Assembly: GCA_016927555.1 (NCBI GenBank)
Contig: JAFGML010000025.1
Span: 1 to 62,288, forward strand
Direction of reading: 5' to 3'
Length of the DNA stretch: 62,288 nt
From: Thermoplasmatota archaeon
GTDB lineage: Archaea; Thermoplasmatota; E2; DHVEG-1
The notes below the pieces were generated by a model. It saw only the letters and a program-made list of their open reading frames with translations, did not search any database and was not told where the DNA came from. How positions within the stretch are numbered: position 1 is the first letter of the stretch; each line of letters begins with the position of its first letter. A program made the position numbers and the translations under genes. This document shows positions 23,408-26,125 of this stretch, one piece after another.

Positions 23408-26125
23408 ATGACCGACTACGACCAGAAAGCATTCGAACAGAAATGGCAGCAGCAATGGCAGGACATGAAGCTGTACCATTTCGATTTCCACAGCAAGAAA
23501 AAACCGTACAGTATCGATGTACCACCACGCTACGCCTCAGGGCCGCTCCACGCAGGCCACGCGGTGCACTACACCCACATTGATTTTGCAGCACGGTACA
23601 AACGGATGCGAGGCTACAACGTGTTTTTCCCCTTATGTTTCGATGTCAACGGCATCCCCATTGAAGAACGAGTCGAACGGCAACTCAACATCACCCGCAA
23701 GGATATTGACCGCCATGAGTTCACCAAGCTCTGCTCAGAGTTCGCACAAAAGAACATCGCGACCATGACCGAGCAGTTCATCAGACTAGGGGAAAGCATG
23801 GACCCTAGCATCTACTACCAGACCGACGCGGAGTACTACCGCAGAATCACCCAGATATCATTTCTCGAATTATTCAACAAAGGCCACATCTACAAAGGAG
23901 AATTCCCCGTGAACTGGTGCCCCCGTTGCATGACCGCGATGGCAGACGCTGAGGTTGTGTACAGCGACCGGACCACCAAACTTAACACGATAAAATTCTA
24001 TTTCACAAAAAAACAGGATGAGCAACTCCTCAAGTTCCATGGCATCGGAAAAGACCCGCAGGGGATGTACCTGGAGATAGCGACTACCAGGCCAGAGATG
24101 CTTGCTGCGTGTCAGATCGTCGCAGTCCATCCCACAGATGAACGCGCCGCTTGGCTCCTCGATCAAACTGTGAAAGTCCCGACTGTAGACAAAGAAGTCA
24201 AAATCGTTGCAGACGACGCGGTGGACCCCGAGTTTGGCACTGGTGTCGTCATGATTTGCACCGTGGGAGACAAAGAGGATCTCAACTGGGTCTTCAAGTA
24301 CAAACTCCCCCTAGAAATGAGCATTGACGAAGAAGGAAAAATGACTGCGATTACCGGTAAATACCAGGGGATGAAAATCGAGGATGCCCGCGCAGCCATC
24401 ATCAAGGACATGACTGCTGATAAACTTCTATTGAAACAAGAGCCGCTTGCTCAGAACGTTGGCGTCTGCTGGCGCTGCAAGACACCTGTCGAGTTCATCA
24501 ACGCCAGACAATGGTTCCTGAAAACTATCCCGTTCAAACAACTGGTACTGGACGCAAGCAATTCAATGCACTGGTTCCCCGAATTCATGAAGATACGACT
24601 CGAAGACTGGGTTAACTCCCTGGAGTGGGACTGGGTGATCAGCAGACAACGCTACTTCGCCACTCCAATACCTCTGTGGGAGTGCGCATCCTGTGGAGAG
24701 GTCGTCCTTGCACGAGAAGAAGACTGCTACATTGACCCTACGATTGACCAACCACCAGTACCTCGGTGTCCAAAATGCGGTGGCACACTCAAAGGCTGCG
24801 AAGACGTCTTTGACACCTGGATGGATTCCTCGATCTCACCGTTGTATAACACTTTTTGGCGCCGAGATGATCACAAGTTCAAAACCCTCTATCCGATGTC
24901 CCTTCGTCCGCAGGCCCATGACATCATCCGCACCTGGGCGTTCTACACCATCTTACGCTGCACCCTATTAACCGATAAAAAGCCGTTCGACGATATCATG
25001 ATGGGCGGTTTCATCCTCTCCGAGGACGGCACCCCGATGCACGCCAGCCTCGGCAACGTCATCGATCCGCTCGGCATCATTGATGAGTACGGGACAGACG
25101 CGTTCCGCTGCTACGCAGCCAGCTGCGCCCTGGGCGAAGACAACCCGTTCAGACGCAAAGACGTCGTCCGCGGCACCAAGCTCCTCAGGAAACTGTGGAA
25201 CGTGCAGCAGTTCATCGGCAACATCATCAAGAACCACAAACCACAAAGACCAGAGCACCTCCAGGATATCGACCAGTGGATGCTCACCAAGTACAGCAAA
25301 CTGGTGAGCAAGTGCACAGAGAAGATGGATGCCTTTGAGTACTCTCCCACCATGAAAGACGTCGAGTACTTCCTCTGGCATGAATTCGCAGACCACTACC
25401 TCGAGATGATCAAAGGATCCATCTACAACAAAGAGAACGAAGACAGCATCCGATTCACCCTGTACACCATAGGGTTCGGGCTGCTGAAGCTGTTTGCCCC
25501 GTTCTTCCCTCATCTCACCGAGGAGATCTACTACGATGTCTACAAGCAGTTCGAGACAAGCGACAGTATACACATCAGCTCCTGGCCAGAGCCCATCCTG
25601 GAAGACGATGAAAAGGAACAGTCTGGCGAAGCAGTGAAAATCTATATCGCACAGGTACGCTCCTGGAAAAGCGAGCAGGGCATGGCACTCAACGCCCCTC
25701 TCCCTGCGACCGTGACCTACGCAGCACAAGACCTGATTACGAAGCTGAAAACCAATCACCACATCATCGTTTCTACGCTGAAGTACCCACAGACGCACCA
25801 GTTCATCGCAGGGAAACCAGAGATACAGGAAACCATCACGGCAGTCGAACCGGTGTTTTCGAAACTCGGGCCAGCGTTCAAAACAGACAGCAGCACCATT
25901 GCCAGATGGATTAAAGAGAATCAGGAGAAATGTATCACGATTATTGAATCCAAAGGCGACTTAACACTCTCAGAGATACCAGGCGTGGCAGCAAAGAAAA
26001 AAGAAGGTCTGCTCAAAGCAGGGTACCTCCAAGTGAAACGTGATGCTGGTCTGAAAGGCAAGAAGGACAGCACTGTTCTCTCCTTCGATGGGTTCTACCT
26101 AGAGCTCCAGAGGAAGAAACCATGA
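23408..26125 (+). CDS. valS: Valine--tRNA ligase (archaeal type)
   Basis: PPRYASGPLHAGH (HIGH-like), editing motifs ATTRPE and GTGVVM, DWVISRQRYFATPIP, DTWMDSSISP, QAHDIIRTWAFY; KMSKS position reads PMHAS. Confidence 0.95.
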   Translation: MTDYDQKAFEQKWQQQWQDMKLYHFDFHSKKKPYSIDVPPRYASGPLHAGHAVHYTHIDFAARYKRMRGYNVFFPLCFDVNGIPIEERVERQLNITRKDIDRHEFTKLCSEFAQKNIATMTEQFIRLGESMDPSIYYQTDAEYYRRITQISFLELFNKGHIYKGEFPVNWCPRCMTAMADAEVVYSDRTTKLNTIKFYFTKKQDEQLLKFHGIGKDPQGMYLEIATTRPEMLAACQIVAVHPTDERAAWLLDQTVKVPTVDKEVKIVADDAVDPEFGTGVVMICTVGDKEDLNWVFKYKLPLEMSIDEEGKMTAITGKYQGMKIEDARAAIIKDMTADKLLLKQEPLAQNVGVCWRCKTPVEFINARQWFLKTIPFKQLVLDASNSMHWFPEFMKIRLEDWVNSLEWDWVISRQRYFATPIPLWECASCGEVVLAREEDCYIDPTIDQPPVPRCPKCGGTLKGCEDVFDTWMDSSISPLYNTFWRRDDHKFKTLYPMSLRPQAHDIIRTWAFYTILRCTLLTDKKPFDDIMMGGFILSEDGTPMHASLGNVIDPLGIIDEYGTDAFRCYAASCALGEDNPFRRKDVVRGTKLLRKLWNVQQFIGNIIKNHKPQRPEHLQDIDQWMLTKYSKLVSKCTEKMDAFEYSPTMKDVEYFLWHEFADHYLEMIKGSIYNKENEDSIRFTLYTIGFGLLKLFAPFFPHLTEEIYYDVYKQFETSDSIHISSWPEPILEDDEKEQSGEAVKIYIAQVRSWKSEQGMALNAPLPATVTYAAQDLITKLKTNHHIIVSTLKYPQTHQFIAGKPEIQETITAVEPVFSKLGPAFKTDSSTIARWIKENQEKCITIIESKGDLTLSEIPGVAAKKKEGLLKAGYLQVKRDAGLKGKKDSTVLSFDGFYLELQRKKP

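Follow-up and report, generated by a model that had tools for sequence, protein, structure and literature searches.

The KMSKS motif's second lysine is taught as a catalytic constant among class I aminoacyl-tRNA synthetases, and in canonical enzymes it gives positive charge to the alpha-phosphate and pyrophosphate in the transition state of adenylation. The valyl-tRNA synthetase (ValRS) considered here is encoded by valS at positions 23408 to 26125 of the forward strand of contig JAFGML010000025.1 (62,288 nucleotides, analyzed whole and referred to below as the window), from the Thermoplasmatota archaeon assembly GCA_016927555.1. It has lost both lysines of the motif, which reads PMHAS, and an arginine upstream of its HIGH motif, Arg41, accompanies the loss of the second lysine across relatives and may supply the missing charge. 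To our knowledge, the known exceptions to the KMSKS rule (TrpRS, TyrRS, and ArgRS) all lie outside the editing Val/Ile/Leu group. ArgRS enzymes without the canonical KMSK reportedly use a lysine of the HIGH loop, an arrangement that would resemble that of the present ValRS in pairing a degenerate KMSK with a compensating basic residue upstream of HIGH; however, the ArgRS lysine lies about 3 residues before HIGH, as against 7 for Arg41, and ArgRS is a different, tRNA-requiring family. In human TyrRS (KMSSS), K+ is said to replace the second lysine. This enzyme is likewise reported to be an active class I synthetase with a natural loss of that residue, but a cation rather than a side chain compensates, and the first lysine is kept.

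The nearest described parallel to Arg41 comes from human TrpRS (KMSAS), in which Arg162, located in the beta5-alpha7 loop and 8 residues before His170 (of HVGH), binds ATP at the gamma-phosphate and Trp-AMP at the alpha-phosphate and has been proposed to stand in for the second lysine that is missing (PMC2275098). TrpRS of the eukaryotic/archaeal type and the ValRS of the window share the replacement of the second lysine by alanine as well as a conserved arginine in the loop that leads from the first strand to the HIGH helix, and the spacing is similar (Arg162 lies 8 residues before His170, and Arg41 lies 7 before His48). Human TrpRS differs in being a dimer of subclass Ic with no editing domain. 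It also keeps its first lysine (K349), through which it binds the alpha-phosphate; the ValRS of the window is without both lysines. IleRS2 offers a parallel within class Ia, as a supposedly essential signature motif is naturally altered in an active enzyme; unlike the present case, the altered motif is HIGH, the enzyme is bacterial, and the change is tied to antibiotic resistance (PMC10485003).

Sequence and domain structure of the ValRS

The open reading frame (ORF) of valS (23408 to 26125, +) encodes a valine--tRNA ligase of the archaeal type with 905 amino acids. Its assignment as a ValRS in the original prediction is borne out by both curated equivalog models: the protein scores 948.8 bits against NCBIfam NF009687 (cut-off 738) and 784.8 bits against TIGR00422 (cut-off 612.1), and it falls below every cut-off of the IleRS, LeuRS, and MetRS models. 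By these scores, a misidentified IleRS or LeuRS is ruled out. Pfam places tRNA-synt_1 at residues 12-578 and Anticodon_1 at 622-767, and the architecture is that of a Rossmann catalytic domain, into which the connective peptide 1 (CP1) editing domain is inserted, with a helical anticodon-binding domain after it. The closest solved structure by sequence is the ValRS of Thermus thermophilus, 1gax (phmmer E = 1.9e-100, residues 4-759), which is also the top fold match (Foldseek E = 4.8e-51, template modeling score about 0.6) of an AlphaFold2 (AF2) model with a mean predicted local distance difference test (pLDDT) of 80.

Residues P39, P40, D79, W471, I506, W510, D288, and D291 align with residues of the Thermus enzyme and are invariant in an alignment of 42 sequences (A1) that reaches down to about 50% identity. 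The Thermus counterparts are P41, P42, D81, W456, I491, and W495, which form the valine pocket, and D276 and D279, which serve editing. The CP1 editing motifs, identified by alignment to T. thermophilus ValRS, span positions 24083 to 24280 (+) and comprise TTRPE (residues 226-230), GTG (277-279), D288, and D291; T226, T227, R228, P229, E230, G277, G279, D288, and D291 are invariant in A1. The HIGH motif is a canonical HAGH (residues 48-51; 23549 to 23560, +), and its H48, G50, and H51 are likewise invariant. Only the segments 78-82, 138-140, 471-481, 503-505, and 535-549 of the AF2 model have a pLDDT below 50. Despite the good fold overall, these include D79, W471, and the stretch just before I506, all equivalents of the Thermus pocket, along with the PMHAS loop.

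The PMHAS motif occupies residues 543-547, and is encoded by ccg atg cac gcc agc at 25034 to 25048 (+), with codon 543 beginning at nucleotide 25034; its coordinates, residues, and numbering, like the HAGH reading of the HIGH motif, are as first noted. In the phmmer alignment the motif, within the peptide GGFILSEDGT-PMHAS-LGNVIDP, sits on K528-M-S-K531-S532 of 1gax, and the flanking G..GNVIDP matches. No lysine or arginine occurs anywhere in residues 527-566. As for the class I signatures, HIGH (H-x-G-H) is present and a KMSKS with at least its second lysine is absent, so membership in class I and in the ValRS family rests on overall homology and not on the KMSKS motif. The Thermus enzyme (1GAX/1IVS) and the ValRS of the window have in common the fold, the domain order, HIGH, the valine pocket, the CP1 editing motifs, and the G..GNVIDP frame. 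They differ in that K528, K531, S530, and Pro43 of Thermus correspond to P543, A546, H545, and Arg41, and in that the present protein belongs to the archaeal-type family NF009687 and not to the bacterial family, and carries about 100 extra C-terminal residues. Judged from its sequence, the protein is a full-length ValRS whose HIGH motif, valine pocket, editing, and anticodon-binding parts are intact.

A single-copy gene under selection

A family-model search of the source assembly, which is 84.7% complete, finds one ValRS above the cut-off; the remaining class I matches are IleRS, a MetRS-like protein, and CysRS. The IleRS and CysRS of this genome retain KMSKS (the HIGH motif of the IleRS being HPGH), and therefore the change in the loop is specific to ValRS. 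The survey of relatives applied the family model to 151 genomes from the class and to 151 from the phylum, with the motif read from about 110 fetched loci. A single ValRS match per genome was found in 145 of the former and 147 of the latter, among them 99%-complete genomes assembled as one contig.

The original prediction had argued that a change spanning several codons is unlikely to be a sequencing error, and the relatives agree. Among 120 homologues at least 78% identical in the motif region and taken from independent assemblies, 114 have PMHAS, one has PMHTS, and one has PMLAS, and the other four show no motif by simple pattern match. Across the fetched relatives, all four proline codons, both histidine codons, and six serine codons are used within the motif, while its methionine and histidine are constant, and Arg41 is encoded by all six arginine codons. 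Since synonymous codons vary while the residues stay, the amino acids of the motif are under selection.

These observations bear on the possibility that valS encodes a pseudo-enzyme or is an inactive paralogue, or that it is an artefact of assembly or sequencing, a possibility to which we give almost no credence. An incomplete assembly could indeed be missing a second gene. However, one-contig, 99%-complete relatives have this form as their only ValRS, so the second valS that had been suggested as a check is found neither in the source assembly nor in its complete relatives. A pseudogene or inactive paralogue is contradicted by these single-copy genomes together with purifying selection on the codons; an error of sequencing or assembly is ruled out by the intact ORF, the presence of the motif in hundreds of independent assemblies, and the codon evidence. 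The protein is very probably the functional and sole ValRS of its genome. Charging of tRNA-Val by this protein is predicted, given that neither the assembly nor complete relatives contain another ValRS-like gene.

Distribution of the PMHAS form in Thermoplasmatota

Three types of ValRS are found in the phylum. Type A, to which the ValRS of the window belongs, reads PPRYASG-x-L-H-x-G-H up to and through HIGH and PMH[A/T/S]S, rarely PMHTH, in the loop; type B reads PPPYPSG-x-W-H-I-G-A and type C PPPTVSG-x-M-H-I-G-H, both with KMSKS. Besides f1, the family of the source genome, type A is present in no fewer than 30 other coded families. Loci detected by family model place it in f2, f3, f6, f9, f11-13, f16-19, f21, f23, f27, f28, f32, f33, f37-40, and f42-45; a DNA pattern adds f48-52; and f47 matches a type A protein and not the DNA pattern. 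That pattern, a strict one for G-x-P-M-H-x-S-x-G-N, occurs in 197 of the 401 sampled genomes of the phylum (95 of 162 genera), nearly always once per genome, and in all 54 sampled f1 genomes, as against a single match for the reversed control pattern. In f11, whose nearest public proteins carry the names Methanomethylophilus, Methanomethylophilaceae, and Methanoplasma, many one-contig, 99%-complete genomes have type A as the sole ValRS.

The type A clade is monophyletic, with a support of 100 in FastTree (145 rows) and 99 by the Shimodaira-Hasegawa-like approximate likelihood ratio test in IQ-TREE (LG+C20, 53 rows). Among the best 150 representatives of 50%-identity clusters drawn from 1.8 billion proteins, both lysines are missing only in this clade. 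Nearly all other ValRS-like representatives hold the second lysine, even when the first is gone (MMHKS, EMHKS, AMHKS, PMHKS, AMSKS, KISKS, etc.). PMH[A/T/S]S marks one ValRS clade in roughly half of the sampled Thermoplasmatota, and the enzyme of the window is the sole ValRS of a marine archaeon and a member of this lineage-specific subtype in which both loop lysines are lost. The suggestion that the motif could be a lineage marker thus holds, the mapping of PMH(A/T)S that had been called for showing a single clade (support 99-100) spread over many Thermoplasmatota families. The variant is far more widespread than was assumed at the outset, as it is present in hundreds of database proteins and extends to Methanomassiliicoccales-type genomes.

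Publicly, type A proteins are annotated simply as valine--tRNA ligase. Prior characterization in relatives had been raised as something that would lower the novelty of the variant; full-text literature searches, with the motif strings and with ValRS combined with KMSKS and the relevant taxa, returned no paper describing it. The loss of both lysines from an essential, single-copy ValRS across about half a phylum amounts to a natural experiment on the replacement of the motif, and its carriers include abundant marine group II-like archaea as well as Methanomethylophilus-type gut methanogens. For annotation, the motif is a simple marker of the type A clade, and type A proteins will defeat rules that look for a "KMSKS region" or for a lysine that binds ATP.

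Arg41 and the loss of the second lysine

Arg41 (cgc; 23528 to 23530, +) is the last residue of PPR, the third position of an otherwise near-universal PPP (Pro43 of Thermus ValRS), and precedes H48, with which HIGH begins, by 7 residues. A1 shows no variation at this position. In an alignment of 145 rows, only three of the 905 positions carry a basic residue in the clade but not in other ValRS, namely R41, K289 (in the editing domain), and R582. In the AF2 model, R41 is in the loop between the strand 32-35 and the helix 49-67. The protein combines the absence of the second lysine (A546) with a conserved basic residue in the loop between beta1 and the HIGH helix, as do enzymes of the TrpRS Arg162 type and the ArgRS HIGH-loop lysine type, and positions 41 and 546 covary across relatives.

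The covariation is seen most directly in a PMHKS subclade of type A (f7, f8, and five metagenome proteins), in which the second lysine is present. All of its members for which the N-terminus is available have PPP and no arginine, and R41 is the sole one of the three clade-specific basic gains that reverts to proline in it. Among the 301 proteins in which both motifs could be read, 292 have R41 without Lys546, eight have P41 with K546, and one (P0121) is an exception. Between the PMH[A/T/S]S and PMHKS rows, eight positions are fixed differently, and only at position 41 do the PMHKS rows share the state of the outgroup. Position 546 behaves in the same way, being lysine in 108 of 108 outgroup rows; it was left out of the count of eight because it is too variable within the clade (T/A/S). 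What is new here, on the strength of the alignments, is the apparent coupling of second-lysine loss to a single other residue, Arg41. The paired states (Arg41 without the lysine, or Pro41 with it) yield a direct, testable prediction. In the maximum-likelihood trees, the PMHKS/Pro41 subclade falls within type A and is the sister group of the class-level relatives of the source genome, a placement that would mean a paired back-switch. Since an approximately unbiased (AU) test allows either placement, only coupling is claimed here, and not reversal.

The pattern bears on an explanation in which a bound K+ or an extra Mg2+ replaces the second lysine and Arg41 does something else, for instance binding the valine carboxylate or A76. 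Human TyrRS (KMSSS) is reportedly a precedent for replacement by a cation, the archaeal cytoplasm is rich in K+, and Ser547, His545, and backbone carbonyls of the loop could ligate an ion. However, such an explanation leaves the presence of arginine in 292 of 292 proteins without Lys546, and of proline in 8 of 8 with it, unexplained, and the clade covers marine, gut, and sediment lineages (as judged by source names) with differing ionic conditions. We consider it unlikely.

A second alternative, which we regard as quite unlikely, is that there is no compensation at all. The enzyme would be slower, a weaker binder of ATP, or dependent on tRNA for activation, and would be tolerated in slow growers, with Arg41 a neutral or unrelated marker of the clade. 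ArgRS, GluRS, and GlnRS require tRNA for amino-acid activation, and ArgRS is a tRNA-requiring class I enzyme with a degenerate KMSK; many members of the clade appear, from their source names, to be oligotrophs or slow-growing methanogens. Against this, P-M-H-x-S with its invariant histidine has persisted while the sequences diverged deeply, to about 50% identity, as befits a loop that works and not one that is relaxed, and Lys546 returns only alongside the loss of Arg41, which argues for a constraint on charge.

His545 and the loss of the first lysine

The third residue of the motif, His545 (25040 to 25042, +), is invariant in A1 and is a candidate stand-in for the first lysine. Among 142 motif-bearing representatives, a histidine at the third position is present in 17 of the 24 in which the first position is neither lysine nor arginine, and in none of the 118 in which it is one of these. 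The link between this histidine and loss of the first lysine is seen in several unrelated lineages.

Loops of the xMHKS kind (MMHKS, PMHKS, EMHKS, AMHKS, MMHRH) recur in unrelated ValRS-like and IleRS-like lineages, with P0122, P0128, P0146, P0164, P0198, P0217, and P0264 as representatives. In addition, a Thermoplasmatota ORF of about 1,050 amino acids that is IleRS-like by eye (L145; G163:C8:101500-107500) has the loop GHPMHKSAGN, with HLGT at HIGH.

A proposed mechanism and points against it

In type A, K-M-S-K-S has become P-M-H-A/T/S-S in what is very probably still a working housekeeping ValRS. The charge in the transition state could then come from Arg41 of the HIGH loop in place of the second KMSKS lysine, while His545 probably assumes the hydrogen bonding of the first. 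The reaction itself, an in-line attack on ATP by the carboxylate of valine, is presumed to be the same, and only the residue that bears the charge would be relocated. Taken whole, the proposal that this is a working, sole ValRS in which Arg41 provides the charge and His545 the contact is in our estimate somewhat more probable than its negation. For the identity of Arg41 as the surrogate of the second lysine, as suggested by covariation, the case for and the case against are evenly balanced; that the whole clade has shifted the charge from the mobile KMSKS loop to a fixed arginine of the HIGH loop, with histidine for the first lysine, falls slightly short of even. The original prediction had proposed an alternative catalytic chemistry, with "His or a distant basic residue" substituting. 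The second half fits, in that Arg41 tracks the loss of the second lysine and His545 that of the first; as regards the first half, the evidence fits the same chemistry with the charge moved.

Several points weigh against this proposal. The AU test allows the PMHKS subclade to fall outside type A (p = 0.234), and the covariation rests on few independent events, namely a single one should the PMHKS subclade prove basal or two should it prove nested, plus a singleton. That singleton, P0121, combines PPP with PMHTS. Outside the clade, the type C ValRS of f41 reads K-AFSSS-RG, without the second lysine, and yet has PPP; here the second lysine was lost independently and in a different context, and therefore arginine at position 41 is not the only solution. 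In the AF2 model, the KMSKS loop (535-549) has a pLDDT below 50 and the block 41-50 of the HIGH loop a mean of 56; because these loops are of low confidence, the structural argument rests on secondary-structure position and on precedent. Arg41 also adjoins the prolines of the valine pocket and could serve the binding of the amino acid or of A76. Lastly, the authors of the human TrpRS study favor Ser351 of KMSAS over Arg162 for the phosphate contacts of the lysine (PMC2275098).

Both exceptional proteins have features of their own. P0121 is a type A protein of 890 amino acids from one Logan contig of 3,974 bp, the only member of its cluster, with P41, Thr546, and HVGR at HIGH; no relative above 58% identity was found among the 401 sampled genomes. 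Its arginine at the fourth position of HIGH may represent yet another, third source of the charge. The f41 protein (locus L062, genome G219) is the sole ValRS of a 99%-complete genome, and keeps PPP and HIGH.

If the charge has indeed moved to Arg41, closure of the KMSKS loop would no longer deliver catalytic lysines, and the enzyme would provide the first example among editing class Ia synthetases (Val/Ile/Leu type). The natural back-switch (PMHKS with Pro41) would show that either solution can take the place of the other, and there could be differences in ATP kinetics, tRNA coupling, or sensitivity to inhibitors. Inhibitors also enter into a further explanation, by which the loop was selected for lower affinity to a natural inhibitor of the KMSKS loop or ATP site; it addresses the origin of the change and not its working, and is compatible with a relocation of the charge to Arg41. 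We hold it to be improbable, and we know of no ValRS inhibitor relevant to these habitats. Which of the three ValRS types is present switches from family to family in the phylum, and even inside f7, suggesting gene replacement, and the altered HIGH motif of IleRS2, structures of which are among the fold matches, brings about mupirocin hyper-resistance (PMC10485003). No resistance or biosynthetic gene turned up beside valS, where no search was aimed at such genes.

Other features of valS and of the three ValRS types

Beyond the ValRS family model, whose match stops at nucleotide 25828, valS continues with a C-terminal extension of about residues 808-905 (25829 to 26122, +). This extension of about 100 amino acids is also present in homologues of 900-930 amino acids, and AF2 predicts it as helices followed by strands, with a block pLDDT of mostly 72-90. 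Within the 3' part of valS, ARAGORN calls an antisense tRNA-Ser(tga) at 25828-25911 (-), which begins exactly at the end of the ValRS family match. As Rfam at E <= 1 finds no tRNA at 25828-25911, the call is probably a false positive.

Type B is a mirror image of the enzyme of the window, in that the HIGH motif reads W-H-I/V-G-A, with its last histidine replaced by alanine, while KMSKS is kept. Type B loci (L040, L041, L045-L055, L078, L082, L086, L087, L089-L091, L100, L102-L104, and L110) belong to families f5, f7, f14, f20, f25, f26, and f29-f31. One member scores 714 bits, just below the NF009687 cut-off of 738. Identity of this "HIGA" type with the NCBIfam alt_ValS was rejected, the score being 416.7 bits against a cut-off of 900. 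Different genomes of f7 hold type A (PMHKS; L039, G071) and type B (L040, G092; L041, G086), an arrangement suggestive of valS replacement by transfer. That three types are scattered patchily through one phylum points to repeated gene replacement.

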